64,000 bases of DNA, from the NCBI GenBank assembly GCA_965197475.1, contig CBDANF010000002.1, positions 1,433,507 through 1,497,506 on the forward strand, in the 5' to 3' direction. Source of the stretch: Candidatus Poribacteria bacterium (GTDB lineage Bacteria > Poribacteria > WGA-4E > WGA-3G). The notes under the pieces are model-generated. The model was not told the DNA's origin, made no database searches, and was given only the letters and a program-made list of their open reading frames with translations. Within the stretch, counting starts at the first letter, position 1. Every line of letters starts with the position of its first letter. The position numbers and the translations under genes were made by a program. Below, one piece after another: positions 16,359-51,094 of this stretch.

Positions 16359-18290
16359 ATGAATCAGCAACCCTTGCATCCTACCGGGGTAATCACCAAA
16401 AAAGCGATAATTGTTGGCTTAATCCTCGTCATCGTTAATGCATACTGGGTCGGAATAGCCAGTGAACTCTGGTACGCAGTCTACACACTTGTTTCCCCTT
16501 TTTCTAATGCGGTTTTTACGCTGGTAGTGCTACTCGCGCTGAATGTTATCCTCCGTAAAATCTCATCACGTTTCGCTTTCACACCCGCCGAACTCTTACT
16601 AATCTATATTATGGTGACGATGGTCTCCACCATTTCTGGACATGCGATGATGGCAATCCTGATGGGGATTTTGGCACACCCTTTCTGGTTCGCGAGCACC
16701 GAAAATGAGTGGGCACAACTCTTTTTGCACCATATTCCTCAATGGCTTACGGTGCATGAACCCGAATGGTTAGCTGGTTATTATGAGGGTGAATCAAGCA
16801 TCTATTTATCGGAGCATCTCCGTGTATGGACAAAGCCAGTTCTTATCTGGTCAAGCTTTATCTTTCTTCTTTATGGATCGTTGCTCTGTTTGGGACTGCT
16901 GCTTCGGAAACAGTGGATGGAACGGGAAAAATTAAGTTTTCCATTAACACAGTTGCCATTACAAATGACAACGAACCGTAGTTTTTTCAGTTCGCGTGCG
17001 CTTTGGATAGGGTTCGGAATTGCTGCCCTGCTCCGCGTACTGGCAGGCTTGCATGACCTATTTCCTATAATACCAGCATTTCCATCAAGTTACCGACTTG
17101 ATAGACATCTTACAGACAAACCGTGGAATGCTGTCGGCTATGTCTCTATGTCCTTCAACCTCGCTATTGTTGGATTGACCTATTTTATGCCGCTTGACCT
17201 CGCATTCTCCACGTGGTTTTTCTTTTGGCTTACACGCGCAGAACGGGTGATTGCGAGTGCCGTAGGCTTATCGAATATCAGCAAACTTCACCTTAATGAC
17301 CGCGCATCGGGGGCTTGGATTGGTATTGCTGTGCTGACTTTATGGATGGGGCGCAGACATCTCATTAGGTTTTTCAAACATGTTGCGGGGATTGAACGAG
17401 GCGATGATGCAAGCGAACCTCTCTCCTATAGAACCACAGCAGTTCTTGCTATTCTCAGCGTAGGCGCAGTGTTTGCTTTCTGCTATATTGCCGGAATGTC
17501 GTTATGGGTTATTGGTATCTTTTACATGCTATTCGTAGCGTTCGCCTTAGCAATCGGACGCGTTCGTGCTGAATTGGGACCGCCTTATCATGAGGTGATT
17601 GGCATTAATCCGCGCCAAATGATGGTGAATACATTTGGTTCACGCAGCTTGGGCGCAGCAAACCTCACCGTGATGACATTCCTATACGCTTTCAACCGTT
17701 GCAACCGTTCACATCCGATGCCGAACCAGATTGAATCGCTCCGAATTGGGGATCAGGCAAAGATTCCCGGCAAAACTTTGCTTTTAAGCATGGCACTTGC
17801 TATCGGTGTTGGAGCACTTGCCACGTTTTGGACATATCTGCAGGTGGCTTATAACTACGGTGTGCTTGCACGGTGTCAAGGTCATGTTGGGCATTTTGGA
17901 TGGGAGAGTTTTAATCCGCTGCAAAGTTGGTTACAACATCCAAAGGAGGCGAATGTGAGTGCGATTGCATTTATGGGAGCAGGTTTCGGTTTTGTCTTCC
18001 TACTCAATTTTTTGCGCACCCGTCTCCTATGGTGGACACTGCACCCATCAGGGTACGTTCTTTCCGGTGCTTCGTGGGGCGGTCTCATCTACTTTTGGTT
18101 TCCTGTTATGGTCAGTTGGTTTATTAAGTTCATGATTTTGCGATTCTCAGGCTGGCAAACCTATCGCAAGGCAATACCATTTTTCCTCGGATTGGTTTTA
18201 GGCGATTTTGTGCCGCGAAGCGTCCTGAGTTTAATTAGTTTTGCGATGAATCTCTATATGCCCTCTTCTGGCGCAGGGCATTCCCTTTAG
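16359..18290 (+). CDS. Polytopic membrane protein, putative transporter (DUF6784/DUF6785-like)
   Basis: Many TM segments; LRKQW.E.E.L.FP..QLP, R.RAE.GPP and PFFLGL.LGD shared with the paralogue at 46814. Confidence 0.7.
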   Translation: MNQQPLHPTGVITKKAIIVGLILVIVNAYWVGIASELWYAVYTLVSPFSNAVFTLVVLLALNVILRKISSRFAFTPAELLLIYIMVTMVSTISGHAMMAILMGILAHPFWFASTENEWAQLFLHHIPQWLTVHEPEWLAGYYEGESSIYLSEHLRVWTKPVLIWSSFIFLLYGSLLCLGLLLRKQWMEREKLSFPLTQLPLQMTTNRSFFSSRALWIGFGIAALLRVLAGLHDLFPIIPAFPSSYRLDRHLTDKPWNAVGYVSMSFNLAIVGLTYFMPLDLAFSTWFFFWLTRAERVIASAVGLSNISKLHLNDRASGAWIGIAVLTLWMGRRHLIRFFKHVAGIERGDDASEPLSYRTTAVLAILSVGAVFAFCYIAGMSLWVIGIFYMLFVAFALAIGRVRAELGPPYHEVIGINPRQMMVNTFGSRSLGAANLTVMTFLYAFNRCNRSHPMPNQIESLRIGDQAKIPGKTLLLSMALAIGVGALATFWTYLQVAYNYGVLARCQGHVGHFGWESFNPLQSWLQHPKEANVSAIAFMGAGFGFVFLLNFLRTRLLWWTLHPSGYVLSGASWGGLIYFWFPVMVSWFIKFMILRFSGWQTYRKAIPFFLGLVLGDFVPRSVLSLISFAMNLYMPSSGAGHSL

Positions 18291-18316
18291 CCCTAAAAGT
18301 ACGCTATAATGGAAAT

Positions 18317-19360
18317 ATGATATCACTATTAACTGTCAAATCCATAACAAAACAGTTTGCAGCAACACCTATTGTGACGGATGTTAGTTTTGAGGTCTAT
18401 CCGGGGGAAATCTTTGCGCTTTTAGGTGCCAGCGGTTGTGGAAAGACAACCACTTTGCGCTTAATTGCAGGATTTGAAAAAGCGGATGCTGGCACAATTT
18501 CAATGGCAGATCGCGTTCTTGAAGACGAGGAGATACACATTCCGCCAGAATCACGTGAAATAGGGTTTGTCTTTCAAGATTATGCGCTTTTTCCTGACAA
18601 AAATGTTCTGGAAAATGCAGCCTTCGGACTTAGTCGGAAAATGCCGAAAAAAGAACGGCACAAGAGTGCTTTGGATACCCTTGAGCGAGTGGGCATCGCG
18701 CACCTACACGCACGGATGCCGCATCATCTCTCATGCGGTGAACAGCAACGGGTCGCTTTAGCGCGTTCACTTGCAACGCAACCGAAGCTGCTACTATTAG
18801 ACGAACCTTTTTCAAGTCTTGATGCTGGGCTACGTCAGGCAACGCGGGAAGAGGTGCGAGGTTTGTTAAAAGCCGCTGGGATTAGCGTAGTTTTGGTGAC
18901 CCACGATCAAGAAGAAGCGTTGAGTTTTGCCAAAAGGGTTGCCGTAATGAACAACGGCACGATTGAACAGATTGGCACTCCTGAAGATGTATACCGACAC
19001 CCAAAAACTGTATATGTCGCGAATTTTTTGGGAAAAACGAATATCATTGAAACAGACATCAGAAACGGTGTTGCTGAAACGCCCTTCGGATCGTTGGAGA
19101 TAGATTTTCCAGACACAACGCAGGCTCTTCTCTCAATCCGTCCGGAACATTTTACTATAGAGAAATATGTCTCCGATTCCAGCGATGGAAGCTCTGGACG
19201 TATCGTTGCCCGAGAATTCAAAGGACATGATTTTACCTACCGTGTTGAGGTAGAAGGTAAACCTTATTTCGTTCAAACTGACTATCAGCGGCACTTCCAA
19301 GTAGGCGATGCCGTTACATTAAAACCGATTGAAGCGGTTATTATTAAGGACAAAGACTGA
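18317..19360 (+). CDS. ABC transporter ATP-binding subunit (FbpC/PotA-like)
   Basis: GASGCGKTT, VFQDYALFP, LSCGEQQRVALAR, LLLDEP and a TOBE-like C-terminus. Confidence 0.92.
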   Translation: MISLLTVKSITKQFAATPIVTDVSFEVYPGEIFALLGASGCGKTTTLRLIAGFEKADAGTISMADRVLEDEEIHIPPESREIGFVFQDYALFPDKNVLENAAFGLSRKMPKKERHKSALDTLERVGIAHLHARMPHHLSCGEQQRVALARSLATQPKLLLLDEPFSSLDAGLRQATREEVRGLLKAAGISVVLVTHDQEEALSFAKRVAVMNNGTIEQIGTPEDVYRHPKTVYVANFLGKTNIIETDIRNGVAETPFGSLEIDFPDTTQALLSIRPEHFTIEKYVSDSSDGSSGRIVAREFKGHDFTYRVEVEGKPYFVQTDYQRHFQVGDAVTLKPIEAVIIKDKD

Positions 19361-19362
19361 TT

Positions 19363-19540
19363 TCGCTTTTTGTTAGCGGTTTTTGAGGGATTTTTATAAA
19401 AAATGAACTTTTAACTTGATTTTTTTTTTGCAATTTTGTATATTTTATGTTAATCGTATAAAAGCACCTATTTACAAAGGTGTCATGACAAAATGTGATG
19501 GGAATTTGATCTATTTTCTAATCAAATTTGGAGGTGTAAA
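19363..19540 (+). promoter_or_regulatory. Repeated array promoter, copy 1 (T10, 17-bp spacer)
   Basis: TTGATT 19416-19421, TATATT 19439-19444 and GGAGG RBS; the block recurs four more times in the array. Confidence 0.65.
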
Positions 19541-20281
19541 ATGATTCGGGATATTCTAATCAACAGATGGTTTCTCGGCGGATGCGGATTCCTGATCCTT
19601 CTCTCAATTGGCTGCTACTTCTGGTATCAGAACTATATAGAACCTTACCGCATAGATGCAGCAGCGTCTGCCGAGATGCTCCGTCAATGGGAACAATACA
19701 AAACTGTGAAGAAAAACTTCCGTAAGGAAAACGGCCAGACACCAAAAGAGGGTGAACCGGATGTTTCCGATGAAACTGCTAAAGAGAACAACATTATAGC
19801 GGAAACAGAGAATGTTCCTGAAGTAGAAAACATTGCGAAAGTTAGTGTATCCCCTCACGGATTTGGACCTTATCCTGAATTACCTGAAGAATGGAAAGCA
19901 GCAGTTGCAAGACGGGGCGAACCCTTTTTTTGGGACCCCAAAGACCCTAACGGGGAATTGATGCTACGCGTGCAGGCAAAACTTTTGCACCAAGGCATAC
20001 CCGCCGTAGGTTCAATGATGGATAACGATAACGGTTTAGTATACCCGATAATCAAAGGTATCCGATATGTTGAATTTGAGTGGTCCGGTTTTCGGAGATA
20101 TATCACAACCTCAATCGGCACACCTGAGGATGGTAACCGCCTACGCGCCATCAAAAAAGCGATAGGGCGGCCTCTAACTGCAGCAGACGTGCCACCAGAC
20201 ATCATACTGGTACCTTACGAAGAAGCAGGAATTGACCCGTATACATTTTTAGATTTACCAGGGCTTACGCAAATTGAGTAG
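19541..20281 (+). CDS. Array family A membrane-anchored protein, variant alpha
   Basis: MIRDILINRWFLGGCGFL TM anchor, VSPHGFGPYPELP and GIDPYTFLDLP; the last residues GLTQIE come from the inserted MITE. Confidence 0.85.
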   Translation: MIRDILINRWFLGGCGFLILLSIGCYFWYQNYIEPYRIDAAASAEMLRQWEQYKTVKKNFRKENGQTPKEGEPDVSDETAKENNIIAETENVPEVENIAKVSVSPHGFGPYPELPEEWKAAVARRGEPFFWDPKDPNGELMLRVQAKLLHQGIPAVGSMMDNDNGLVYPIIKGIRYVEFEWSGFRRYITTSIGTPEDGNRLRAIKKAIGRPLTAADVPPDIILVPYEEAGIDPYTFLDLPGLTQIE

Positions 20282-20377
20282 AAAAAGGACATATTGGACT
20301 TAAAAAGTCGTTATTTCGGTATTTTAACCCCTAAATCCCCCTCATCAAGGGGACTTTTGAATCTATTGCGTAATCCT
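20260..20377. mobile_element. AGGACTTACGCA-type MITE, copy 2
   Basis: Homologous to 2748-2846; replaces the family A stop codon. Confidence 0.75.
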
Positions 20378-20431
20378 AATTTACTATAAAGTGAATTCGA
20401 TCTATTCTCTAATCAAATTTGGAGGTATAAG

Positions 20432-21154
20432 ATGATTCGTGATACCTTAACCAACAGACGGTTCCTCGGCGGATGCGGATTCTTGATCCTTCTCTCAATT
20501 GGCTGCTACTTCTGGTATCAGAACTATATAGAACCTTACCGCATAGATGCAGCAGCATCCGAGGAGATGCTCCACCAATGGGAAACAACCCAAAAAGCAT
20601 CGGACGCATCAAACACCGATTCTATCAAAACCGAGACTACTAACAGGTCATCTAATTCTACCAACCCTGTGTCAGAAAACATAGACAACAGTCCGTCACA
20701 AAAGGCTGCGTCGGTGGCGAAAACGGGCACAGACGTTCCAGTTTCACCTTACGGATTTGGTCCCTATCCTGAAGTACCCTCAGATTTCCCGGGTATCATC
20801 AGTTGGAACGATCCCGAAGGTCAAGCAAACCTGCCTGATCATGCGAATAAAAACATTGAACTCATAGAAAGAGTTCTTATAAAGTTATGGAAACAAGGCG
20901 ATAAAAGTTTCCGCGGTGGAAGTACCTATAATGGCAAAGTTTATCCTCATTATAATAACACTGTTTATGTCCTTTACGACGAGTATGAATTACCGGATGG
21001 GACAATGCAACGGTATCCTGCGTACGCAAAATCAGGACCTCAGGTTATTTACAGCACGGCGGACCTTTTAAACCCACCAGCTCACCTTCGTATTTTAGAC
21101 TTAGATTCTTCTGGGATTGATCCATATCAATTCCTAAATCTACCTCAAGATTAG
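20432..21154 (+). CDS. Array family A protein, variant beta
   Basis: N-terminus nearly identical to alpha, stalk similar to the 28783 copy, distinct C-domain ending GIDPYQFLNLP. Confidence 0.85.
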   Translation: MIRDTLTNRRFLGGCGFLILLSIGCYFWYQNYIEPYRIDAAASEEMLHQWETTQKASDASNTDSIKTETTNRSSNSTNPVSENIDNSPSQKAASVAKTGTDVPVSPYGFGPYPEVPSDFPGIISWNDPEGQANLPDHANKNIELIERVLIKLWKQGDKSFRGGSTYNGKVYPHYNNTVYVLYDEYELPDGTMQRYPAYAKSGPQVIYSTADLLNPPAHLRILDLDSSGIDPYQFLNLPQD

Positions 21155-21163
21155 GAGAAAAAA

Positions 21164-21910
21164 ATGCATATATTCTATACTACAAGAAGTAACACCGTTA
21201 GACTTTGTTGTCTGACTCTTTTGGTAATATTTGTTGCCGTAGTTTTGTTTACGCTTCAAGGTGAAACAGAAGATTTTCCTTCAAACGATGAAATCCCAGC
21301 AAGTATATACGGGGATAGCCATGGAAATAAAGAACTGTTACCCATGCGTGTCGGAAAAGTTTTTTGGTCACGTACATACGTTCACTGCCATGCACTTGCT
21401 TATGCTCACTGGAGCCGCCGCGGTTTTCATGACGTTCAGGCATATACAGGCCGAGCTGATATGGGTCGGTTTCCTTTTATTAGAAAACATAGAGATAAGA
21501 AGACAGCTTATTTTAGGAATGGGTGTCGGGCAATCGCAGATCTTGACGTATCCTACCATCTAATAGGGCCCAATAAGGTGCAGTGGATTGCCTCGTATCG
21601 TATTTGGGATCAAACAGGCGCAAAAATTGGACAGGTAAACCGCCAAGGGTTAGGTTATCCCCTTGAAGACGATATGAATCTTCCTGAAGGGGACATGGGT
21701 GATGCAGGAGGTAGTGGCAACGTTAGATTAGCCACAACTACAGGATACGAAGTCACTGCAGGAACTGCACACGAAGCGAGTATTACCACAGATGCACCGT
21801 ATTATTCAATTATTTGGTCTATAACAAGTCCAGGTCAAACCGAACCAGATACGGTTGCAGAAACCGACCAGGGAGACGGAACTACAACAGAGGCGAAGAC
21901 GATGATTTAA
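21164..21910 (+). pseudogene. Array family B secreted protein, truncated by fusion to a family A tail
   Basis: Signal-like N-terminus; AGTAHEASITTDAPY...ETDQGDGTTTEA matches the repeat domain of 29523; from 21885 the DNA matches 29394 onward. Confidence 0.75.
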
Positions 21911-21992
21911 CTGAGGCAGATATACCACCGGATATCAAATTGGTCCCTTACGAAGAAGCTGGAATTGACCCATATACATTTTTAGATTTACC

Positions 21993-22110
21993 AGGACTTA
22001 CGCAAATTGAGTAGAAAGAAGGACATATTGGACTTAAAAAGTCGTTATTTCGGTATTTTAACCCCTAATCCCCCTCATCAAGGGGACTTTTGAATCTATT
22101 GCGTAATCCT
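21993..22110. mobile_element. AGGACTTACGCA-type MITE, copy 3
   Basis: Same position relative to the family A tail as copy 2, so duplicated with it. Confidence 0.75.
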
Positions 22111-22173
22111 AATTTATTATAAAGTGAATTCGATCTATTCCCCGATTCAAATTTAAAATGTGGAGGTTTTTAG

Positions 22174-22899
22174 ATGATTCGCGATATCTTAATCAACAAA
22201 TGGTTTCTCGGCGGATGCGGATTCCTGATCCTTCTCTCAATTGGCTGCTACTTCTGGTATCAGAACTATATAGAACCTTACCGCATAGATGCAGCAGCGT
22301 CTGCCGAGATGCTCCGTCAATGGGAACAATACAAAACTGTGAAGAAAAACTTCCGTAAGGAAAACGGCCAGACACCAAAAGAGGGTGAACCGGATGTTTC
22401 CGATGAAACTGCTAAAGAGAACAACATTATAGCGGAAACAGAGAATGTTCCTGAAGTAGAAAACATTGCGAAAGTTAGTGTATCCCCTCACGGATTTGGA
22501 CCTTATCCTGAATTACCTGAAGAATGGAAAGCAGCAGTTGCAAGACGGGGCGAACCCTTTTTTTGGGACCCCAAAGACCCTAACGGGGAATTGATGCTAC
22601 GCGTGCAGGCAAAACTTTTGCACCAAGGCATACCCGCCGTAGGTTCAATGATGGATAACGATAACGGTTTAGTATACCCGATAATCAAAGGTATCCGATA
22701 TGTTGAATTTGAGTGGTCCGGTTTTCGGAGATATATCACAACCTCAATCGGCACACCTGAGGATGGTAACCGCCTACGCGCCATCAAAAAAGCGATAGGG
22801 CGGCCTCTAACTGCAGCAGACGTGCCACCAGACATCATACTGGTACCTTACGAAGAAGCAGGAATTGACCCGTATACATTTTTAGATTTACCAAAATAG
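22174..22899 (+). CDS. Array family A protein, near-identical duplicate of alpha
   Basis: Protein identical to 19541 except R9K and the native LPK end. Confidence 0.88.
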   Translation: MIRDILINKWFLGGCGFLILLSIGCYFWYQNYIEPYRIDAAASAEMLRQWEQYKTVKKNFRKENGQTPKEGEPDVSDETAKENNIIAETENVPEVENIAKVSVSPHGFGPYPELPEEWKAAVARRGEPFFWDPKDPNGELMLRVQAKLLHQGIPAVGSMMDNDNGLVYPIIKGIRYVEFEWSGFRRYITTSIGTPEDGNRLRAIKKAIGRPLTAADVPPDIILVPYEEAGIDPYTFLDLPK

Positions 22900-23035
22900 G
22901 GAGGAAAAGCATGTTTTACCGTATATTTTGGCTATCACCAGTCAACTATCGGCTTTTTGTTAGCGGTTTTGAGGAATTTTTATAAAAATGAATTTTTAAC
23001 TTGATTTTTTTTGGGCATATTTTAGTATAATGTAT
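22900..23035 (+). promoter_or_regulatory. Family B stub plus array promoter, copy 2 (T8, divergent 3' half)
   Basis: RBS and ATGTTTTACCGTATATTTTGG stub at 22911, TTGATT 23001 and TATAAT 23026 (19-bp spacer). Confidence 0.55.
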
Positions 23036-23140
23036 GAAAATGGTAAGCAAACCTGCATTATAGAAGTTTATACCTGGAAACTCCCTTGTCCGCTGGACGC
23101 AGCGAAATATAAGTACCACCAAGGAATAAGGAGGATGCTC

Positions 23141-24217
23141 ATGAAAAAGCAACTGTATTGGGGATTCGGTATCCTCATTTTATTTTTTAGCGTTGTCGGT
23201 GTTTTCTTGTTGATACCCAAAGACACTGACACCGAACCGGAAAAGGTCTATAAGGCACCATCGGAAGAAGTCAGTGAAAAGGCACAAGAAGCAAACACCC
23301 CTTCAGATGATATCACACTGCCACCGCGGGCAGTACAACCCTCTGCTGACACCGGCGAACCGTCAGAACAAAAACTTGAAAAAAGGAAATATGCGACGGA
23401 ACCATTGGGGTACGAGAAGGAAGGGGTTGAGGGAATGTACATTACACACATCCCACGCGATCCTTCTCGTTTTGCGGACAAACCCCCGCCACCGTTGCCC
23501 CCCTCCTCAGTGCCGGACGACATCCCTGAACACCTCAAACTCCCACCCGAATGGATAGATGGTGTCTATCGCGATATAGAACCACCACCGCCAGATGATA
23601 CATTGACAGACGAAATAAGGAGAAGTATAGGAGAAATTATCCAAGAGGTTGTTCGCAACTACAACCCGAAACGTTCCTACGCTGATATATGGGATCAGTT
23701 TATTGAATATGAGAAGATGTATCGCGCTTATGCGGAGTACGAACTCGGCTATACACCGCAAAATGCATCAATGACTTGCAACCGAGTTGATTGGTTATAT
23801 GAACAGGTATGGGCTTTCCCTGAATTTATGGAATTGGGAAATACGGCAGACACACCACCCCCACCTGGTGAAGAAAGTCGTTTTCTAACAGCTTATGACA
23901 TTGCAATGGGTATAGATCATACGGGCTGGAACCACATCACCCTCAAAGATGGTCGTGATTTTTACATCAAAGGGGAGACACGTTATGAGTTTGTATATCA
24001 GGGTGTAACTGAAGCAGGGGATGAGTGGAAAAACGTCACAGGGTTTAGCCGAACCCGAGTCACAGAAAGCACACCAGTCATTACGATTGATGTTTATAAT
24101 ACTTCTGACGAAGAACTTAAAAGGCTCATGGGGTGGGATTACCGCGTCAACCCTATCACCATGAAACCGATGCAAGATAACCTTTACGACTATATACTTC
24201 ATAGGAGGATAGAATGA
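23141..24217 (+). CDS. Array family C membrane-anchored, Pro-rich protein
   Basis: AGGAGG RBS; MKKQLYWGFGILILFFSVVGVFLL anchor shared with 25970; poly-Pro stretches. Confidence 0.8.
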   Translation: MKKQLYWGFGILILFFSVVGVFLLIPKDTDTEPEKVYKAPSEEVSEKAQEANTPSDDITLPPRAVQPSADTGEPSEQKLEKRKYATEPLGYEKEGVEGMYITHIPRDPSRFADKPPPPLPPSSVPDDIPEHLKLPPEWIDGVYRDIEPPPPDDTLTDEIRRSIGEIIQEVVRNYNPKRSYADIWDQFIEYEKMYRAYAEYELGYTPQNASMTCNRVDWLYEQVWAFPEFMELGNTADTPPPPGEESRFLTAYDIAMGIDHTGWNHITLKDGRDFYIKGETRYEFVYQGVTEAGDEWKNVTGFSRTRVTESTPVITIDVYNTSDEELKRLMGWDYRVNPITMKPMQDNLYDYILHRRIE

Positions 24218-24981
24218 AAAAACTAACATTGTTTGTTTTTGTGTTTACAGTTTCTATCATATCAACAGTTTGTTATTCAGCGGATGCGGATTCCTGATTG
24301 TTTTCGCGTTTGGTTGTTATTTGTGGTATCAGCACGAGCTTGAACCCTACAAACAAGAAGCAGCAGAAGCACACCGGCAGTGGGAAGCATCCCAAAAAGC
24401 GGATGCTAACAGCGACGTGGAACAGGTGGTATCTGATGCACTTGTGGAACGCAGCATGCCAACTGTAGCGAAACCTATAACCGAAACGGTGGAGAAAAAC
24501 GTTGTCTTCAGCGATCTCCACGAAAACCTGACAGAACAAATGCAAGAAACGGTAACCACCGAAGATGTGCGGGTTTCTCCTCACGGTTTCGGACCGTATC
24601 CGAAAACACCAGAAGGTTGGTCCCCCATACCTTGGGAACTCTACAAAGACCCGGACCGTGAATTGATGACACGTGTCAGGATAAAAATCCTTGAACAAGG
24701 GAAACCCATCAAAGGTGTCACGATGGATAGAGGCAAAGTATATCCCATAATTAGTGGTATCCGCTATATCAAATGGGAAACGGAAATTACACAGGAAGGC
24801 GAAGTGAAGCAGAGAATAACTCGCTCACTTGGAACTATTGAGGATGGCAGACATCTTGCTGCTATCAGAGAAGCGAAAGGGGGGCATTTTGACTGTGTCT
24901 GACGTGCCACCAGACATCATACTGGTACCTTACGAAGAAGCAGGAATTGACCCGTATACATTTTTAGATTTACCAAAATAG
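24214..24981 (+). pseudogene. Chimera: partner-gene signal peptide fused out of frame to family A variant gamma, plus a G6 frameshift
   Basis: ATG 24214 gives MKKLTLFVFVFTVSIISTVCYSADADS*; joins family A DNA at gcggatgcggattc (24280); removing one G at 24879-24884 restores VSDVPPDIILVPYEEAGIDPYTFLDLPK. Confidence 0.75.
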
Positions 24982-25208
24982 GGAGGAAAAGCATGTTTTA
25001 CCGTATATTTTGGCTATCACTAGTCAACTATCGGCTTTTTGTTAGCGGTTGTTTGAGGAATTTTTATAAAAAATGAATTTTTAACTTGATTTTTTTTGCA
25101 ATTTTGTATAATTGTGTCAAAGTATAGAGAGACACCTATTTACAAAGGTGTCATGACAAAATGTAATGGGAATTTGATCTATTCTCTAATCAAATTTGGA
25201 GGTATAAG
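24982..25208 (+). promoter_or_regulatory. Family B stub plus array promoter, copy 3 (T8, 15-bp spacer)
   Basis: TTGATT 25086-25091 and TATAAT 25107-25112. Confidence 0.65.
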
Positions 25209-25958
25209 ATGTATCGCGATATCTTTACTAATAAATGGATAATCAGAGGTATTGCAACTCTGATAATAGTGGCCTGTGCGTGTTTTTTATGGTATAAATA
25301 CGATACGGCAGCAGACAGAAAAGCGGCAGCCGAAACCGCCGAACTGCTACGTCAATGGGCAGCTAAAAAGTCTACACCTGACGACAAGACAGAACAGCCA
25401 GCCGCTGCCCCTGTGGAAAACACGGAGAAACTAAGAACCGAAACAACCGGTGCCGTTGTAAAAATAGACACAAGCCTCAATGAAACAACTCAATACGTCC
25501 CAGGCGATGTCTTTATCGGCCCCGCACCGCCGACAGAACGGGGTTCTAAAGATGAACTCGTCTCTCCCTACGGTTTCGGACCCTATCCCGAATTACCAGA
25601 AGGGTTCGGACCCATCACCTGGCCCCGCAGGAGTGCTGAATCTGAATTGAGAACACGTGTTCGGATCAAACTTCTAAAAGAAGGTATCCCTGTCAAAGGG
25701 GCTGTTATGGAAAATGGCTTGGTATACCCCATCATCAAAGGTATCCGCTATGTAAAATGGGGTGAGAGAGCGGGAGGGAGCCGCTATCTCACGCGATCCC
25801 TTGGTCATCCCGATGATGGCGACCGCATGCAGGTGATTGAAGAAGAGAAATATAAACGGAGAGAAAGTTTTACCCAAGCAGACGTGCCAGACATCAAGCT
25901 GGTCCCTTTTGAAGAGGGAGGCATAGACCCTTATACCTTTCTTGATTTACCCAAATAA
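25209..25958 (+). CDS. Array family A protein, variant delta
   Basis: Divergent anchor MYRDIFTNKWII; VSPYGFGPYPELP, VYPIIKGIRYV and GIDPYTFLDLPK conserved. Confidence 0.85.
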   Translation: MYRDIFTNKWIIRGIATLIIVACACFLWYKYDTAADRKAAAETAELLRQWAAKKSTPDDKTEQPAAAPVENTEKLRTETTGAVVKIDTSLNETTQYVPGDVFIGPAPPTERGSKDELVSPYGFGPYPELPEGFGPITWPRRSAESELRTRVRIKLLKEGIPVKGAVMENGLVYPIIKGIRYVKWGERAGGSRYLTRSLGHPDDGDRMQVIEEEKYKRRESFTQADVPDIKLVPFEEGGIDPYTFLDLPK

Positions 25959-25969
25959 GGAGGAAAAGC

Positions 25970-26856
25970 ATGAAAAAGCATCTGTATTGGGGACTCGGTA
26001 TCCTCATTTTATTACTCGGCGTTGTCGGTGTTTTTTTGTTGATGCCGCAAAATACCGACAACGAGTCGAAACCTGTATTAGGGGAGGCAACCAAAAAACT
26101 GCTAAAAGAAGGCACTGAACAAACCGTGGTTAAACCTCTGCCTGGTGAAACCGAAGCAGGCTTAGAGAGCGTAGGGACACATCCCGTAAAATTAGAGGAC
26201 ATCTCTATAAACTGGCCAGAAGGGGCAGACTGGCCTGTCAATTGGAAAGTGTTGTACAATAATTTGTCCGAAGAAGAGTTTGCTAAACTTCCTCAGGCTA
26301 CAAAAGATGCAGTTAACCGGGCATTTTATGCTGAAATGGGATTAGAACCCCCCCACCCGGATACTATCACCATCGAAACAAAAAGACAGGTAAGTGGGAG
26401 CTCGCCCGAAACAATGTGCCTATCATTGAAGTACGTTGGGAAGAATCTACATACAATCAATTTCACCAACTCACTGACGCAGAATACGAACGGTATCACG
26501 CGCTTATGTGGATTGCCGATAATCAGGAAGCCGTAGCAAGCTCCGTTGCTTCTGGGCGGCATCCACATCGGATACTTGCTTACCCGCCAGAAGTCTATGA
26601 ATTGGCTCAGAAATGGTTAGATGAACTCCACGAAAAAACTTATGGTCCTACCCTTCAAGCCTATGCTAATGTCTATTATGACCGGCCAAAAACGGCTGCC
26701 GATCACGAAATGGTAGATAGGATGATGGACGAGGCAATGAAAACAGCATTGCCCCATCGTCAAAGGTCAACGAGGCCAACTGACGTTGTCGTTGACGAAA
26801 TTCTTAATGAAATCGAGGTTGAACTCGGTATCACAATAAAGCGAAAATCTGAGTGA
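25970..26856 (+). pseudogene. Array family C protein frameshifted in a C7 tract
   Basis: MKKHLYWGLGILILL anchor; one extra C at 26348-26354 gives GLEPPPPGYYHH..., continuous with ORF 26416-26856. Confidence 0.7.
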
Positions 26857-27076
26857 CAAGGATTTCCCGAGAATTAGAAGAGCAAATACGGTCGCGCGCT
26901 AAGCGTTACAATTTGTGTAGGATGATGCTTCCTCAGACGAAAGCATTCGGAAACTAGCATGAAATTCATAGGCATCTACATGAAAATTTATATGTATCCA
27001 TCTGAAAGGGAACAATCAGTAGAAATCCTTTTCTGTGGTAACCGGTGCTACTTGTGCCAAGAAAGGAGATATACAA

Positions 27077-27541
27077 ATGAGATTTAAGATATTAATGCGA
27101 ACCCTGTTAATCTTTGTAATAGGACTCCTGACTGTTGTTCATATACATGCTGATCCTCCGTCAGAGGCTGGCGAAAATCCGCCTCAATGGGAAAAGTGGG
27201 GACCTGTTCCCTGGGAATCTCTGAGCCGCAACAGGGAATTGATGACGCGCGTTCGTATCAAACTCTTGAACCAAGGTATACCCGTCGTAGGTTCAATGAT
27301 GGATAAAGATTTAGTATACCCGATAATCAAAGGTATCCGATATGTTGAATTTGAGTGGTCCGGTTTTCGGAGATATATCACAACCTCAATCGGCACACCT
27401 GAGGATGGTAACCGCCTACGCGCCATCAAAAAAGCGATAGGGCGGCCTCTAACTGCAGCAGACGTGCCACCAGACATCATACTGGTACCTTACGAAGAAG
27501 CAGGAATTGACCCGTATACATTTTTAGATTTACCAAAATAG
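27077..27541 (+). CDS. In-frame chimera: cleavable signal peptide plus family A C-terminal domain
   Basis: AGGAG RBS; MRFKILMRTLLIFVIGLLTVVHIHA-D; C-terminal ~73 aa identical to alpha. Confidence 0.75.
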   Translation: MRFKILMRTLLIFVIGLLTVVHIHADPPSEAGENPPQWEKWGPVPWESLSRNRELMTRVRIKLLNQGIPVVGSMMDKDLVYPIIKGIRYVEFEWSGFRRYITTSIGTPEDGNRLRAIKKAIGRPLTAADVPPDIILVPYEEAGIDPYTFLDLPK

Positions 27542-27768
27542 GGAGGAAAAGCATGTTTTACCGTATATTTTGGCTATCACCAGTCAACTATCGGCTTTTT
27601 GTTAGTGGTTGTTTGAGGAATTTTTATAAAAAATGAATTTTTAACTTGATTTTTTTTGCAATTTTGTATAATTGTGTCAAAGTATAGAGAGACACCTATT
27701 TACAAAGGTGTCATGACAAAATGTAACGGGAATTTGATCTATTCTCTAATCAAATTTGGAGGTATAAG
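27542..27768 (+). promoter_or_regulatory. Family B stub plus array promoter, copy 4 (T8, 15-bp spacer)
   Basis: TTGATT 27646-27651 and TATAAT 27667-27672. Confidence 0.65.
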
Positions 27769-28554
27769 ATGATTCGAGATATCCTAACCAACAGATGGTT
27801 TCTCGGCGGATGCGGATTCCTGATTGTTTTCGCGTTTGGTTGTTATTTGTGGTATCAGCACGAGCTTTCACCTTACAAACAACAAGCAACAGAAACACAT
27901 CAGCAATTGGAAGCATTTCGAAACGATGATAAAGACAGCAGGGTGGAAAAAACAGCTGATGCGGATTCTTCTGAGGAAAGCACATCAATAACAACAGAGA
28001 AAACTATAGGTGAAACAACCAATACAGTAGTAGATGAAAATGCTTCCTCCGGCAAGACCGATTCCAACTTAACGAGACAAACACAGGAGACCGAACCAGT
28101 TGATGAACTGCGCATTTCGCGTTTTGGATTCGGTCCGTATCCAGAGGTGCCTGAAGACTTCCCGTACCCCGCTGTTTGGGATGTTCCCTATACGGGTCCA
28201 TACGACGAGCGCGCGCAGATCCAGGACGAACTCCTCTGTCGTGTCGGAATCAAGTTGTGGACACAAGGTATCAAAAGTTTCGGTGGCGTTTTTGGTGATG
28301 ACGGTTTGGTTTATCCGAATCTCAAAAACACTGTCTATGTTGAATGGGCGTACCGAGGGGCATTCAATAACTTACGTTATCCCAAAAGAATTCGAGGCGA
28401 TCCGAGTGCTGGGAGGCGGATAAGAGACATCTCATTCGAAAAACGGGAAAGACGCGAGAGTTTCACCGATGCGGATATCCCTTCAGATATAATAGTCATC
28501 CCTTTTGAAGAAGGGGGTATTGACCCTTATACCTTTCTTGATTTACCAAAATAG
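27769..28554 (+). CDS. Array family A protein, variant epsilon
   Basis: Conserved anchor, ISRFGFGPYPEVP and GIDPYTFLDLPK. Confidence 0.85.
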   Translation: MIRDILTNRWFLGGCGFLIVFAFGCYLWYQHELSPYKQQATETHQQLEAFRNDDKDSRVEKTADADSSEESTSITTEKTIGETTNTVVDENASSGKTDSNLTRQTQETEPVDELRISRFGFGPYPEVPEDFPYPAVWDVPYTGPYDERAQIQDELLCRVGIKLWTQGIKSFGGVFGDDGLVYPNLKNTVYVEWAYRGAFNNLRYPKRIRGDPSAGRRIRDISFEKRERRESFTDADIPSDIIVIPFEEGGIDPYTFLDLPK

Positions 28555-28782
28555 GGAGGAAAAGCATGTTTTACCGTATATTTTGGCTATCACCAGTCAA
28601 CTATCGGCTTTTTGTTAGCGGTTGTTTGAGGAATTTATATAAAAAATGAATTTTTAACTTGATTTTTTTTTTGCAATTTTGTATAATTGTGTCAAAGTAT
28701 AGAGAGAACCTATTTACAAAGGTGTCATGACAAAATGTAACGGGAATTCGATCTATTCTCTAATCAAATTTGGAGGTGTAAA
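28555..28782 (+). promoter_or_regulatory. Family B stub plus array promoter, copy 5 (T10, 17-bp spacer)
   Basis: TTGATT 28659-28664 and TATAAT 28682-28687. Confidence 0.65.
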
Positions 28783-29511
28783 ATGATTCGGGATATTCTA
28801 ATCAACAGATGGTTTCTCGGCGGATGCGGATTCCTGATTGTTTTCGCGTTTGGTTGTTATTTGTGGTATCAGCACGAGCTTGAACCCTACAAACAAGAAG
28901 CAGCAGAAGCACACCAGCAATTGGAAACATCTCAAAAAGCAGCGGATGCACCACAAACCGATTTTATCAATACCGCGCCTACTAACGGAACGGCGAATAC
29001 TACCGACACTGTGTCAGAGAATATAGACAACAGTATGCCCCAAGAGACAGCATCAGTTGAGAAAACAGATAAAGACGTTCCTGTCTCACCTTACGGATTC
29101 GGACCCTATCCACCTTTACCGCCAGGGTGGAGAGGCACACCTGAGAGAACATGGAATAACCTATCTGCTAATCATGAACTGATAGCACGGGTCCAGATAA
29201 AACTACGCTGGGAAGGTGTAGACGTAAGAGGTGCTGTTACGAAATATGGCAAGGTATACCCAATTATCAAAGGTATTTGCTATGTTCGATGGGAAACAGA
29301 AAACACACCGATGGGTGAATACAGATATATCGCAGGAAGTACCGGCCATCCAGATGATGGTGGCCGCCTACGTGCTATTAAAAAGGCGAAATTCAACAGA
29401 GGCGAAGACGATGATTTAACTGAGGCAGATATACCACCGGATATCAAATTGGTCCCTTACGAAGAAGGGGGCGTTGATCCGTACGAGTTCTTAGGACTCA
29501 CACCACCATAA
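28783..29511 (+). CDS. Array family A protein, variant zeta
   Basis: Conserved anchor, VSPYGFGPYP and GVDPYEFLGL. Confidence 0.85.
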   Translation: MIRDILINRWFLGGCGFLIVFAFGCYLWYQHELEPYKQEAAEAHQQLETSQKAADAPQTDFINTAPTNGTANTTDTVSENIDNSMPQETASVEKTDKDVPVSPYGFGPYPPLPPGWRGTPERTWNNLSANHELIARVQIKLRWEGVDVRGAVTKYGKVYPIIKGICYVRWETENTPMGEYRYIAGSTGHPDDGGRLRAIKKAKFNRGEDDDLTEADIPPDIKLVPYEEGGVDPYEFLGLTPP

Positions 29512-29522
29512 GGAGGAAGCAA

Positions 29523-30656
29523 ATGTTTTATCGTATACTTTGGACTTCTATCGTAGGAATGCTAATGATCGCACCACTACATGCAGATTACAAAATTGCA
29601 AATCTACAAGAAAGTTTTGCCCGGAAGTTTGCAGGAGATAGTCAATCAGAACTATACGCCGAAGCCCATATTGACGTTGATCACGATAAATGGTCTGAAT
29701 TGCAAACCAGGGGAACTGCACAGATTACTGGCGGCGCGAACATGCACGATTACTATGGACAGGAACACAACTATGAAAACATTGCGCACGCTTATGCTTA
29801 TGATTTCTCACATGCGGATGCCGATATATGGAATTGCTACAACTGCACACCGAACGATGAATTAGACACACCTTGTTCTAAGTGTGGTGGTATTGATACA
29901 CAAGGTGGCATGCCTGTTGATCAACAATCTCCTCTTGAGACTCCTGAAACTCCTGAAACCCCTAACCCGGATGAAGGAGGCACTGAAGAAGGTGGCGGCA
30001 CTGGAAACCTTGATGGCGGTACTACCACCCCGACCACCTACCTGGCAGATTCATCTACCAGGACCTTAGCCCCTGCCAGTGGGTCAAATACTTACGCCAC
30101 GGCAGGGTCAACACACGAGGCGAGTCTAACAAGTAGCGTGGCTTATGACTCGGTTGTTTGGCAGGTTAGGACACCCAGCAATACCAGTCATCTTGTCCCA
30201 ACTGTTGAGACGGACACCGGCGATGGCACCGCAACCGATGCATCGATGAGTTATACTTTCTCGGCAGGTGTAACCGGTACCTACACGATTATGGCTTATG
30301 TATGGTATTCAGATTTGTCGGCGCGTGCAATGTCCTACGATGTCACAGTCACACTCAGTCCGGGTTTACGCCCGATCAATGGTTCAAGTTACTATGCGAA
30401 TAGTGGTGATACGTACGAGATGGGACTTGTGACGGACGCTCCCTATTCTCAGGTTCAATGGTATGTGAAACCCCCTGGGGATACGAGCACTGATGGCACA
30501 AATGTTGAAACTGACACAGTTACGGGCACAACGACTGAAGCGGAGCTTAGCTACACGCTTCCAACAGGGACCCCTGGAAACCGCCGGATTACGGCGCATA
30601 TTTTCAGGGCAGATGGAACTAATTATAAAGTCACCTACGATGTTTATGTTTATTGA
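29523..30656 (+). CDS. Array family B secreted protein, full length
   Basis: Signal peptide ...APLHA-D, CYNC...CSKC cysteine pairs, ETP/G-rich linker and two ~100-aa beta-rich repeats. Confidence 0.82.
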   Translation: MFYRILWTSIVGMLMIAPLHADYKIANLQESFARKFAGDSQSELYAEAHIDVDHDKWSELQTRGTAQITGGANMHDYYGQEHNYENIAHAYAYDFSHADADIWNCYNCTPNDELDTPCSKCGGIDTQGGMPVDQQSPLETPETPETPNPDEGGTEEGGGTGNLDGGTTTPTTYLADSSTRTLAPASGSNTYATAGSTHEASLTSSVAYDSVVWQVRTPSNTSHLVPTVETDTGDGTATDASMSYTFSAGVTGTYTIMAYVWYSDLSARAMSYDVTVTLSPGLRPINGSSYYANSGDTYEMGLVTDAPYSQVQWYVKPPGDTSTDGTNVETDTVTGTTTEAELSYTLPTGTPGNRRITAHIFRADGTNYKVTYDVYVY

Positions 30657-30673
30657 CATAATCACAATCTCAG

Positions 30674-30711
30674 AACAGGCAGGTAACCGCAGCGTTGCCT
30701 GCCTGTTTTTT
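30674..30711 (+). terminator. Intrinsic terminator closing the array
   Basis: aacaggcaggtaac / gttgcctgcctgtt hairpin followed by a T run. Confidence 0.8.
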
Positions 30712-30814
30712 ATTTTCACTACTTTTTTAATATTTAATGTGTTAAAATAGTAAAGAAAAGATACGTAACTTTACGATTTATTCTGAATTTAAATGCTAAC
30801 AGCAAGGAATTCTG

Positions 30815-31507
30815 ATGGAAGCAAAAATATTAATTGTAGAGGATGAACGTGATATTGTAGAGTTGCTGAGATATAATCTACGGCAGGAAAATTTTAAAGT
30901 TGATACTGTTCAGAATGGTGCTGACGCGTTACAACGCGCAGTAGATAATCCCCCCGACCTCATTTTGTTAGACCTCATGCTACCAGAGGTGGACGGCTTA
31001 ATTGTCTGTCGACTTTTAAAAAATGATCCACGTACAAAAAAAATCCCTATCGTGATGCTAACCGCAAAAACTGAAGAAAGCGACCGCGTGACTGGACTTG
31101 AGTTGGGAGCTGATGATTATATCACAAAACCTTTTAGTCCGCGCGAGGTTGTTTTACGCATCAATGCTGTCCTACGTAGACTCAATGCCAGTCATCAGGC
31201 TGAAGAGGAAAATCAAATCCAAACACACGGTGTGATAATTGATTTGGATCGACATCAAGTATTGACCGAAGATGGCGCAATTGATCTCACAGCGACTGAG
31301 TTTAAACTTATCACGTTATTTGCACGTTCACCCGGACGCGTCTTCTCTCGTGATATTCTGATGGATGTTATTTGGGGACAGGAATACTATGGGATTGATA
31401 GGACAGTTGATACACACGTTAGCCGTCTCAGACGCAAACTCGGAAATTTAGGGGCGCAGATTGAGACTGTGTATGGTGTTGGATATCGACTTAAGGAAAA
31501 GAAATAA
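30815..31507 (+). CDS. OmpR/PhoB-family response regulator
   Basis: ILIVEDE, LLDLMLP, GADDYITKPFS and RTVDTHVSRLRRKL; no adjacent kinase. Confidence 0.93.
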   Translation: MEAKILIVEDERDIVELLRYNLRQENFKVDTVQNGADALQRAVDNPPDLILLDLMLPEVDGLIVCRLLKNDPRTKKIPIVMLTAKTEESDRVTGLELGADDYITKPFSPREVVLRINAVLRRLNASHQAEEENQIQTHGVIIDLDRHQVLTEDGAIDLTATEFKLITLFARSPGRVFSRDILMDVIWGQEYYGIDRTVDTHVSRLRRKLGNLGAQIETVYGVGYRLKEKK

Positions 31508-31576
31508 CTTCCTTACTGTCGTAATACCACAGTTGATAAGCATAAAAAAACATTTCTGAAGAAACGGAGCCAATTA

Positions 31577-32347
31577 ATGAACTTACGATTAACAGACAAA
31601 GTCGTTGTTGTGACAGGGGCAAGTCGTGGAATAGGTAGAGCAATAGCAAACGGCTTTGCTGCAGAGGGCGCACGGCTCAGCATCTGTGGTAGAGACCCAG
31701 ATACCTTACAAACCGTAACCGAGGAACTCAGCGCACACGGTATAAAGGTGTTGTCAAAACCCACCGATGTAACTGATACTGCTCAAGTAGATGCGTTTAT
31801 GACAGAAACCTTGTATCGTTTCGGTAGAATTGATGTTGTTGTTAACAATGTTGACGGAAGTCGTTGGACACCTCTAAACGAGATTTCTGATGATGAATGG
31901 CATGAAATTCTGGATCTGAATCTTGTTTCGGCAACGCGTATCAACCGCCTTGCTATTCCTGCAATGCAGAAGCAGGGTGGTGGTGTGATTCTCATGATTA
32001 CGTCTATTTACGGTAGAGAAGGCGGCGGACATATTACCTACAACGCAGCGAAAGCCGCAGAAATCAGTATGGCAAAGTCGTTGGCAAAGGAACTTGCCGC
32101 TGACAATATCCGTGTCAATAGTATTGCACCTGGGTCTATCCTGTTTCCCGGTGGCGGTTGGGATCGTCGTATCAAAGCGGATCCAGAACGCATGAAAGCC
32201 TTTGTTGAAAACGAGATGCCGCTTGGTCGTTTTGGAGAACCTGAAGAGATCGCCAATGTTGCTGTCTTTCTCGCTTCCGAACGTGCCAGCCTTGTTACTG
32301 GAGCATGCATCAATGTTGACGGATGCCAGTCGCGATCCAATATATAA
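31577..32347 (+). CDS. SDR-family oxidoreductase
   Basis: TGASRGIG, YNAAK and RVNSIAPG motifs. Confidence 0.92.
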   Translation: MNLRLTDKVVVVTGASRGIGRAIANGFAAEGARLSICGRDPDTLQTVTEELSAHGIKVLSKPTDVTDTAQVDAFMTETLYRFGRIDVVVNNVDGSRWTPLNEISDDEWHEILDLNLVSATRINRLAIPAMQKQGGGVILMITSIYGREGGGHITYNAAKAAEISMAKSLAKELAADNIRVNSIAPGSILFPGGGWDRRIKADPERMKAFVENEMPLGRFGEPEEIANVAVFLASERASLVTGACINVDGCQSRSNI

Positions 32348-50048: not shown

Positions 50049-50072
50049 CTTCATATCGGACAAAGAGTTATT

Positions 50073-50669: not shown

Positions 50670-50846
50670 GGACAATAGAGGGTGATGAAGTATATTTGTC
50701 TATAAGTTGTATAAATAGAAGAGGCTATAGATTGCGTTGAACGCTATGAATACAACAAAATCGTATTTTGAAATTCACTGTAGGAAGGTTTCAATATGTT
50801 ACCAGATCAAAGTTAACTGAAAAACAACATCAACGGGGATAATTGA

Positions 50847-50965: not shown

Positions 50966-51094
50966 AGGCGAATTAGTCAAACTTGAAAGTGTTTGACTCT
51001 GTTTGATCAATATGATATTATAAAACCTATAAATGATGCTCTATTTATGATGTGAAAGTCAAGTGAAATAAATATCTCTAAAGGAGATGCAAGA

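Follow-up and report, generated by a model that had tools for sequence, protein, structure and literature searches.

We analysed a 64,000-nt stretch of a Candidatus Poribacteria genome (assembly GCA_965197475.1, contig CBDANF010000002.1, positions 1,433,507 to 1,497,506; hereafter the window), which carries at positions 19363-30711 an array of eight genes or chimeras of one family, here named A, plus an orphan A tail, interleaved with genes of two further types, B and C. We consider it probable that this array is a fast-evolving tandem expansion of a single A-C pair coding for putative envelope proteins, produced by unequal crossing-over and gene conversion, and that it follows birth-and-death evolution and is not a programmed device. 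Its neighbours are an ABC ATPase gene on the left (18317-19360) and, on the right, the gene of an OmpR-type response regulator (30815-31507); every gene of the array lies on the + strand. Its extent and its A content, already proposed in a first-pass annotation made from the sequence alone, were confirmed by open reading frames (ORFs), alignment, direct-repeat families and a blastn self-map. Positions without a prefix refer to the window; C2: and C3: followed by a position denote contigs of the same genome, not the genes C1 and C2, and other genomes are numbered with G.

An A-C pair at the syntenic locus

We located the corresponding locus in congeneric genomes through the flanking 643-residue DUF6785 membrane protein. 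The order of genes is membrane protein, ABC, A, C, response regulator and SDR in G001, and ABC, A, C in G005. In G043, the ABC gene is followed by A, a 43-residue stump of a C start, A, A, C, A and the response regulator. The ABC gene is present in G017 with no A within 17 kb, and in G003 and G007 the membrane protein alone was found within the 20 kb examined. There are therefore one A and one C at this site in two congeners, four A in a third, none in a fourth and eight in the genome studied here, so that copy number does vary across species of the genus at the exact syntenic site.

At the right end of the array, A8 (zeta in the first-pass annotation; 28783-29511, 242 aa) is the orthologue of the single A gene of the syntenic locus, and C2 (29523-30656, 377 aa) is the orthologue of the ancestral partner gene. 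Judging from these relationships, A8-C2 is the surviving ancestral pair. The C2 protein is predicted to have a signal peptide, an N-domain with CxxC...CxxC, an acidic linker and two repeats of about 95 residues; it is about 75 residues shorter than its orthologues, a stretch being missing, and its gene contains the sole tandem repeat of the array (a 9-nt unit, 3.6 times). A search of C1, C2 and five C-like relatives for the C-terminal sorting domain of type IX secretion cargo (Por_Secre_tail or TIGR04183), in Pfam or NCBIfam and at E values up to 0.1, was negative. A terminator-like 16-bp hairpin (30672-30709, +) closes the array downstream of C2.

Remnants of a C gene are found at four further places. 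An identical sequence of 21 nt, ATGTTTTACCGTATATTTTGG, follows A3, A4, A6 and A7 and corresponds to the first seven codons of a C2-type gene, as seen by reference to the start of C2 (ATGTTTTATCGTATACTTTGG); each stump is followed by a junction and the next promoter. The first of these blocks spans 22911-23031, with the ATG and six codons at 22911-22931 and promoter copy 2 (T8 at 23005) behind them, and the block recurs at 24993-25115, 27553-27675 and 28566-28688. Since the stump stands behind four A genes, the unit that was multiplied comprised a promoter, a 5' untranslated region (5'UTR), an A gene and a C stump. The first-pass annotation had taken promoter, anchored A and secreted B as the ancestral unit, which does not agree with the orthologous loci, which carry A plus C, nor with stumps that are starts of a C2-type gene.

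The succession of A and C is also common outside this locus. We searched C2 in 40 genomes of the genus, including the present one (G000), and 33 matched. Of 29 loci examined around the best C2 match in other genomes, 19 have an A gene as the immediate upstream neighbour of that match, on the same strand and at most 130 nt away; one further A is separated by 420 nt, and most other matches are long proteins (441-828 residues) with the C repeat. In its own genome, A is followed by a signal-peptide protein at C3:2516662/2517458, C3:3180691/3181697, C3:3691617/3692347 and C2:59554/58728. A complex prediction for the A8 head (residues 95-242) and mature C2 (22-377), each with its own alignment, scored 0.00 in both runs, which were made without controls.

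Mosaic structure of the A genes

A blastn comparison of the array with itself yields 44 repeat pairs, the longest of 768 nt at 97% identity. A promoter-like block of about 64 nt is present in five copies (19382, 22967, 25052, 27612 and 28625), and a tail block seven times. Besides A8, the family is represented by A1 (alpha; 19541-20281, 246 aa), A2 (beta; 20432-21154, 240 aa), A3 (a second alpha; 22174-22899, 241 aa), A4 (gamma; about 24261-24981), A5 (delta; 25209-25958, 249 aa), A6 (27077-27541, 154 aa) and A7 (epsilon; 27769-28554, 261 aa).

We cut the A genes at shared landmarks and compared their DNA module by module. In the upstream 180 nt, A1, A5, A7 and A8 are 90-99% alike, and A2 and A3 are 91% alike to each other because both follow a dispersed repeat. 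A different grouping appears in the anchor, where A1, A2 and A3 are 91-96% alike (A2 to A1 and A3, 91-92%), A7 and A8 are 97% alike with A4 at 84-87% to both, and A5 is only 61-67% alike to any other copy. The stalks of A1 and A3 are identical, and the stalk of A2 is nearest to that of A8 (72%). The heads of A1 and A3 are again identical and that of A6 is 92% alike to them, other pairs ranging from 50 to 66% and the A2 head reaching at most 61% to any other copy. The tails of A1, A3 and A6 are identical, and the A4 tail is 97% identical to that of A1, although the A4 head is only 66% alike to the A1 head. Finally, the 120 nt downstream of A3, A4, A6 and A7 are 97-98% alike.

All the exchanges listed in the first-pass annotation are borne out by the identities: A2 combines the anchor of alpha with a zeta-like stalk, A4, A7 and A8 share a second anchor (84-97% alike), A4 carries the tail of alpha, A6 carries its C-terminal domain (92%, with a tail at 100%), and alpha is present twice, A1 and A3 being 100% identical from stalk to tail.

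Two trees were built, one from the first 50 residues (anchor) and one from the hinge to the end (head). They comprised the eight array copies, six further copies of the genome and eight from five other genomes, the break in A4 being bridged by an X. The anchor tree unites A1, A2 and A3 (98/96) and A4 with A8 (98/93), with A7 beside the latter pair (90/94). In the head tree, A4 goes with A1, A3 and A6 (92/90), A8 goes with its syntenic orthologues from other species (97/96), and A2 and A7 fall outside a clade (97/97) of the other six array copies. The two trees conflict with good support, and the copies are mosaics bounded by conserved blocks. The proposal that recombination through such blocks expanded the locus is thus upheld by the module identities, by the conflicting trees and by the copy number, which differs at the syntenic site.

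Other genes of the array, the B leader and a dispersed repeat

Four copies in the array are broken (A4, B2, C1 and the orphan tail). About five A genes appear intact (A2, A3, A5, A7 and A8), A1 has a foreign end and A6 is a stalk-less secreted form, in which a cleavable-looking signal peptide is joined to an A1-type head and tail, with neither stalk nor SPxGFGPYP hinge. A7 combines its A8-type anchor with a divergent head, as does A2 its A1-type anchor, and the closest paralogues of A5, at C3:3690399 and C3:3691617, are 64-66% identical to it. A4 is truncated at the 5' end, its homology to the family beginning at codon 7, and it is not preceded by a promoter or ribosome-binding site and lacks an ATG. 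Its frame is lost at a run of six G (24879-24884), where one base fewer would give a single frame; because of the 5' truncation, repair of the frame alone would leave the gene broken. In its tail and in the DNA that follows, A4 conforms to the A1/A3/A6 type. C1 (21164-21910, +, 248 aa) codes for a signal-peptide protein that is cut within the C-terminal repeat and ends out of frame in A8-like tail DNA. That DNA belongs to the orphan A tail (21879-22014, +), which has no gene body and is 92% identical to the A8 tail at 29388-29483.

B1 (23141-24217, +, 358 aa; P0258 in the protein search, 100% identity) has the conserved leader MKKQLYWG... and an uncharacterised ectodomain. B2 (25970-26856, +) is frameshifted at a run of seven C (26348-26354), and one extra C would restore a single frame of about 295 codons. 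B1 and B2 have a leader of 50 residues in common, at 50% identity, and no similarity in the remainder (E 0.15 to 0.98), so that "family B" denotes a shared leader and not a protein family. Thus two B and two C genes do stand interleaved with the A genes, as first described, with the reservation that the B genes are alike in the leader only. Overlapping the stop of B1 is the ATG of a 27-codon, signal-peptide-like ORF (24214-24297, +) that runs out of frame into A4; by comparison with the pairs of B-leader and partner genes at C3:1754732-1768203, it probably represents what is left of the gene for a secreted partner of B1.

Those pairs are part of a second, very regular array in the same genome (C3:1754732-1769203), located downstream of an ECF-sigma-like gene (ECF, extracytoplasmic function). 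It holds six B-leader genes (MKKQMIWGLAILMLLIGIAGVFLL...; 255-310 aa), five of them followed by a gene for 416-526 aa; at least four of these downstream proteins start like signal peptides, and four end in ...QNLLMQRGICSGERLTTLRDYHSDLYR. An anchored protein with a secreted partner in tandem thus recurs there with another type of leader. In G033, a different locus (L059; G033:C1:203500-217500) carries a five-copy A array with B1-like genes (about 29% identity) between the copies, and hence the A/B1 neighbourhood is not unique to the array studied here. A segmental duplication at C2:56686-59554 and C3:837171-839080 contains three near-identical A copies, whose upstream regions are the same; it also holds fragments of a sigma-54-type regulator and adjoins IS-type transposase genes (C2:55620-56566 and C3:839470-840300).

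The foreign end of A1, ...DLPGLTQIE instead of ...DLPK, comes from an inserted dispersed repeat of about 120 bp, resembling a miniature inverted-repeat transposable element (20259-20377; inverted ends GGCTTACGCAA ... TTGCGTAATCC); the array contains this element once more upstream of A3, at about 21992-22110. With blastn the repeat is hit 90 times across the genome, 26 hits being at least 90 nt long, and its word depth is in the thousands in each of four public sequencing runs, a sponge RNA library included. It has an internal hairpin, CCCCTCATCAAGGGG, and copies also stand beside a C2 paralogue (C2:1214855) and the B-leader array (C3:1769491).

Assembly support

The host is a sponge symbiont of the Poribacteria, and its genome is a metagenome bin of three contigs with an estimated contamination of 6.97%. 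These facts, and array repeats of up to 768 nt at 97% identity, raise the question of whether scattered paralogues or strain variants might have been collapsed into a false array. We compared the window with contigs from two public runs of one study, X1 (sample S1) and X3 (sample S2); these runs possibly include the source sample, so that their matches are not independent of the assembly. Contigs of both match 20527-21914 (A2, C1 and the start of the orphan tail) and 22939-24309 (promoter, B1 and the start of A4), and the A5-B2-A6 stretch is matched at 25277-27339 in X1 and 25318-27202 in X3, all with 0-2 mismatches. The same holds in X1 only for 24346-24930, and contigs of these runs match 27838-28545 with 0-8 mismatches. 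The unique junctions A2-C1, promoter-B1-A4 and A5-B2-A6 are accordingly seen in two samples. Furthermore, the window lies on a contig of 1.5 Mb in an assembly of just three, a separate genome (G043) has a four-copy array at the same syntenic site, and the remaining A copies of the genome are distinct sequences at their own loci. The public contigs fail to bridge the long repeats, a point taken up in the Discussion; with this taken into account, we regard an assembly artefact as very unlikely.

In one X3 contig, 138 nt of the A5 stalk are missing at 25404-25543, a loss of 46 codons that keeps the frame; the contig may represent a stalk-length variant or a paralogue that maps there.

Homopolymers and possible switching

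The promoter common to several units consists of AACTTGA, a T run and GCAATTTTGTATAAT. In unit 1 (promoter and conserved 5'UTR, 19363-19540, +) the spacer contains T10 (19420-19429), and the scan calls TTGATT, a 17-nt spacer and TATATT; promoter copy 5, upstream of A8, likewise has T10 (28663) and is called as TTGATT, 17 nt and TATAAT. With T8, as in the promoters of B1 (copy 2), A5 (copy 3, T8 at 25090) and A7 (copy 4, T8 at 27650), the spacer is 15 nt and the scan calls no promoter. In ten copies from four genomes, the run between the conserved AACTTGA and GCA is T6, T8 or T10, the related promoters having T8 at C3:3690205 and C3:3691421, T10 in G033, T8 in G036 and T6 in G043. Across the genome there are ten A/T runs of 10 or more, two of which are the array promoters, and 32 G/C runs of 7 or more, one of which is the break in B2. 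Simple repeats of the potentially hypermutable kind that marks phase-variable loci are thus present in five promoter spacers (T8/T10), at the A4 frameshift (G6) and at the B2 frameshift (C7). The coding runs differ between samples: X1 contigs match the window at both, and those of X3, the only ones of that sample over both runs, have one more C behind 26347 and one G fewer at 24879, each of which restores the frame. In addition, contigs from the sponge RNA library (X9) match parts of A5, A7, A8 and C2 at 100%, and none lies on 18000-19867 or 31076-32000. This is a weak hint of transcription, presence alone having been used from this run, where depth cannot rank genes.

These observations are in keeping with a contingency locus, whose surface-protein genes would be switched individually by slipped-strand changes in the poly-T and coding G/C runs, and whose block recombination would make new anchor-stalk-head combinations, with a previously unseen fold, such that a clonal population would show many surface types to phages or to the sponge. 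The coding tracts differ between samples S1 and S2; within a sample, contigs hide minor variants. Against a contingency locus, indels in homopolymers are also a product of plain decay, A4 is truncated at its 5' end as well, and the ten promoter copies are related by descent and so are not independent. A poly-T promoter as a family-wide design was rejected, since the A arrays of four other species (G033, G005, G046 and G041) are without it. The X3 contigs do contain a poly-T signal (a two-base omission at 19420, depth 39.7 of 167.1, and an inserted T behind 19433), which we did not use because contigs of paralogous T8 promoters can map there at the 90% threshold. The array may be phase-variable, and a true contingency locus is the main rival to our reading, although we hold it to be unlikely.

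Other long G/C homopolymers of the genome may be further sites of slippage: C2:777897 (G31), C2:1312654 (C16), C3:579484 (C14), C3:1159547 and C3:1663561 (C13), C3:2367702 (C11), and 10-mers at C2:1191101, C2:1194716 and C3:2830733. The last two are each about 680 nt upstream of a B-leader gene (C2:1194041 and C3:2831417).

Family A: distribution and structure

None of the array proteins reaches the curated threshold of a family in Pfam, NCBIfam or PADLOC, in line with the first-pass annotation, which had recognised no family for them. A search with a single A sequence gives 252 proteins at E <= 0.001, and a profile search of a library clustered at 50% identity gives 663 representatives, 203 of them at E <= 1e-30; few entries are named, as "hypothetical protein, Candidatus Poribacteria bacterium". 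Among the relatives sampled first, the family is present in each of the 18 other genomes of the genus, with 3-25 matches per genome. In an even sample of the phylum it is present in 119 of 151 genomes, G000 included; without G000, the counts are 88/99, 9/10 and 21/26 in three families of one order. It was found in 0 of 15 genomes from six other Poribacteria families, and nowhere else among those searched.

In an alignment of 77 sequences (A5 numbering), S119, G122, G124, P127, P130 and L245 are invariant and G238, P241 and Y242 are conserved in at least 90%, in line with the reported hinge and tail motifs common to the family. The AlphaFold2 model of A5 made from this alignment shows a helix at 9-55 and a compact domain at 143-249; between them, over residues 63-95, the predicted local distance difference test (pLDDT) values fall below 50. 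Modelled alone, the head domain reaches a pLDDT of 94.8 and a predicted template-modelling score (pTM) of 0.86; it consists, in order, of a helix, four strands, a helix, a strand and two short helices, and the invariant SPxGFGPYP segment packs onto the core. Searches with the full-length model returned long-helix matches only (Foldseek, best E 0.38). The head model had no match at E <= 0.001 with Foldseek against the PDB (best 0.61), none at Z >= 5 among 48,161 chains with VIA-align (best 2.9) and none at E <= 0.001 against BFVD, and a profile search of PDB sequences gave membrane-helix noise alone. Two longer proteins likewise end in this head, one of 616 residues with CarboxypepD_reg and a C-type lectin domain (Lectin_C), the other of 417 residues with TPR and Redoxin; both are predicted to have signal-like N-termini. 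The head is a single conserved fold across the 663 clusters and not a variable tip; variation in A is mostly in the stalk and in which head subfamily is present. The short N-terminus and the acidic stalk lead us to infer an inner-membrane anchor for A, the head lying outside the cytoplasm.

In its architecture, family A resembles the periplasm-spanning proteins TonB and TolA: in about 240 residues, an N-terminus with very few residues in the cytoplasm is followed by a single conserved helix in the membrane, from which a long flexible linker leads to a small alpha/beta domain at the C-terminus. It differs from them in having no match to Pfam TonB_C or TolA, and no ExbB/ExbD or TolQ/TolR is encoded in the window; a TonB or TolA chain was absent among the matches listed by the fold searches (Foldseek, and VIA-align with its best Z of 2.9). 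A distant relationship of fold to the TonB family is still conceivable.

The pairing of genes, the orphan 3' fragment and the truncated copies recall arrays of orphan modules, and the proteins are unannotated, so that A or its partner could be thought of as a delivered toxin with exchangeable parts and the neighbour as its immunity protein. An analogy with polymorphic toxin/immunity loci had indeed been drawn in the first-pass annotation. We found, however, no toxin, immunity, Rhs, CdiA, WXG or secretion-system family in the 13 array proteins or the 45 flanking ORFs. The conserved fold of the C-terminal head does not suit an exchangeable toxin, A has an N-terminal membrane anchor and no delivery domain, and the partner has a predicted signal peptide, where an immunity protein would be expected to remain in the cell. 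A conflict locus of this kind is thus highly improbable, and the analogy finds no positive support.

A role in cell-surface signalling, with A and B-leader proteins as anti-sigma-like membrane sensors for ECF sigma factors, would be in keeping with an ECF-sigma-like gene directly upstream of an A-C pair (C3:2515871) and another upstream of the six-pair B-leader array (C3:1768556). Yet only some 8-10 residues are predicted, from sequence and model, to precede the membrane helix, too few to accommodate a sigma-binding domain. Sigma genes are absent from the array and its immediate surroundings, and a sigma neighbourhood was seen at one of six other A loci of the genome with ORFs examined. We give this explanation very little credence.

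Neighbourhood of the array

Of the 45 flanking ORFs, just two belong to mobile elements: a DDE transposase at 42330-43277, 11 kb from the array, and, at a distance of 22 kb, an IS3-type integrase at 52951-53781. Paralogous DUF6785/DUF6784 membrane proteins are encoded at 16359-18290 and 46814-48733; with 11-16 copies in each relative, they are another expanded membrane family of the genus. At 48906-50669, an N6_N4_Mtase DNA methylase adjoins a MjaI-type restriction endonuclease, in a region where GC is 0.34 (50001-52000), and looks like an acquired restriction-modification pair. A small ORF on the - strand (40539-40973), with FlgD_ig and a near-threshold Por_Secre_tail (26.2 bits against a cut-off of 27), adjoins three WD40 beta-propeller genes that are split by the DDE transposase (40919-45270). 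A search of 19000-31000 against Rfam gave no match at E <= 1, and the hairpins of the conserved 5'UTR are without an Rfam family.

Discussion

The data agree with the view that the array descends from one A-C module. The ancestral locus, between the ABC ATPase and OmpR-type response-regulator genes, would have held two genes: A, for a membrane-anchored protein in which a short N-terminus precedes the conserved transmembrane helix and a disordered acidic stalk leads to a head of about 130 residues, and C, closely coupled downstream, for a secreted protein ending in repeats of about 95 residues. In the lineage studied here, the C gene of one unit would then have been deleted down to its first seven codons, and the resulting unit of promoter, 5'UTR, A and C stump multiplied by unequal homologous recombination. 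Two blocks could have served as crossover sites, namely the promoter, 5'UTR and anchor (about 270-300 nt, 87-99% identical) and the tail with its downstream DNA (about 300-450 nt, 92-98% identical). Gene conversion and crossovers with divergent A paralogues, with B-type genes and with the 120-bp dispersed repeat would have turned the copies into the present patchwork. As to function, the flexible stalk of A probably keeps the head at a distance from the inner membrane, and A probably acts with the co-encoded secreted partner.

Dedicated machinery for such rearrangements was looked for in the array and its flanks. The 13 array proteins include no reverse transcriptase, invertase or integrase, in agreement with the earlier remark that the array has no recombinase. 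No reverse-transcriptase family is found in the 45 flanking ORFs either, and the repeats are whole gene blocks and not a template-repeat/variable-repeat pair, which speaks against a diversity-generating retroelement. An invertible shufflon or other site-specific inversion system does not fit either, all genes being on the + strand, with no array recombinase and no real inverted repeats (only two weak 28-nt pairs with 79% complementarity). With no dedicated machinery found, the simplest mechanism is homologous recombination by the general machinery of the cell, acting through the long repeats.

Several known systems offer points of comparison. The vlp cluster of Mycoplasma hyorhinis, like the similar vsp and vsa systems, is a tandem set of paralogous surface-protein genes. 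The vlp genes each have a nearly identical promoter, leader and 5' coding region and a divergent external part, with a homopolymer in the promoter spacer, and chimeras arise among them by recombination. The array shares with vlp, vsp and vsa the tandem paralogues, the repeated promoter and 5' region, the spacer homopolymer and the recombinant chimeras. It differs from vlp in that the anchor looks like an uncleaved membrane helix instead of a lipoprotein signal, and the external part would be a folded domain on a stalk, with no tandem repeats found in the A genes. Most members of the array family, moreover, are paired with a secreted partner gene, the poly-T promoter belongs to one sub-lineage of family A alone, and switching is here only a candidate.

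The conserved blocks that flank variable segments, the mosaic expressed genes and the partial copies without promoter (A4 and the orphan tail) recall pilE/pilS of Neisseria and vlsE of Borrelia; in contrast to these, the array is without a single expression site, and the copies all lie on one strand and, the broken ones apart, code for complete proteins. The first-pass annotation had likened the locus to antigenic-variation cassettes. Five units, however, carry a full promoter. Start signals (ribosome-binding site and ATG) are missing only from the truncated A4 and the orphan tail and are present in the other seven A genes, so that this is not a silent-cassette system. As in the orphan-module arrays of contact-dependent inhibition (CDI) and Rhs systems, there are gene pairs and displaced 3' fragments downstream of full genes; unlike there, toxin and immunity families are missing and the C-terminal domain is conserved. 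Of the original interpretation, recombination through conserved blocks, the changing copy number and the lack of a curated family hold, and the A-plus-B unit and the cassette and toxin analogies do not.

Some results weigh against a history of ordinary birth and death. Two of the four broken genes break exactly at the G6 and C7 runs, each with a difference of one base in the second sample, and the spacer T runs account for two of the ten long A/T runs of the genome; the breaks in coding runs and the T runs in spacers fit reversible switching better than plain decay. Single X3 contigs join 19876 to 27173, 24938 to 29829, 25333 to 30041 and 25404 to 25543, some with short sides or low depth, and in a single X4 contig (record 17) promoter-A5-B2 follows immediately on an alpha-like gene. 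Such joints are hints, not proof, of other unit orders in close relatives, and by them turnover may exceed what is ordinary. No public contig bridges the long repeats, and the order of units accordingly rests on the assembly alone. Lastly, that the array proteins are envelope or surface components is inferred solely from their architecture and gene neighbourhood. Taking these points together with the orthologous A-C loci, the C stumps and the mosaics, we still favour expansion from one A-C pair by unequal crossing-over and gene conversion.

Loci of this kind are known. For the protein families, for the pairing of A with C and for the fold of the head, we found no description in the literature that could be searched, and full-text searches, judged from their search results, returned nothing on family A or on phase variation in Poribacteria. 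Poribacteria are abundant, uncultivated symbionts of sponges, and how they escape digestion by the host and attack by phages is still a question; the rapid turnover of the array suggests pressure from phages or from the sponge host. If the locus did work as a contingency locus, a clonal population would present a shifting envelope to phages or sponge phagocytes, and it would be the first phase-variable surface system in the phylum, as far as the literature searches show. If switching is not real, the array is still a clear example of unequal crossing-over building a mosaic gene family. In either case, because they combine a large unnamed family, an unmatched head fold, a secreted partner and quick turnover at one syntenic site, A and C are good candidates for envelope proteins under diversifying pressure.

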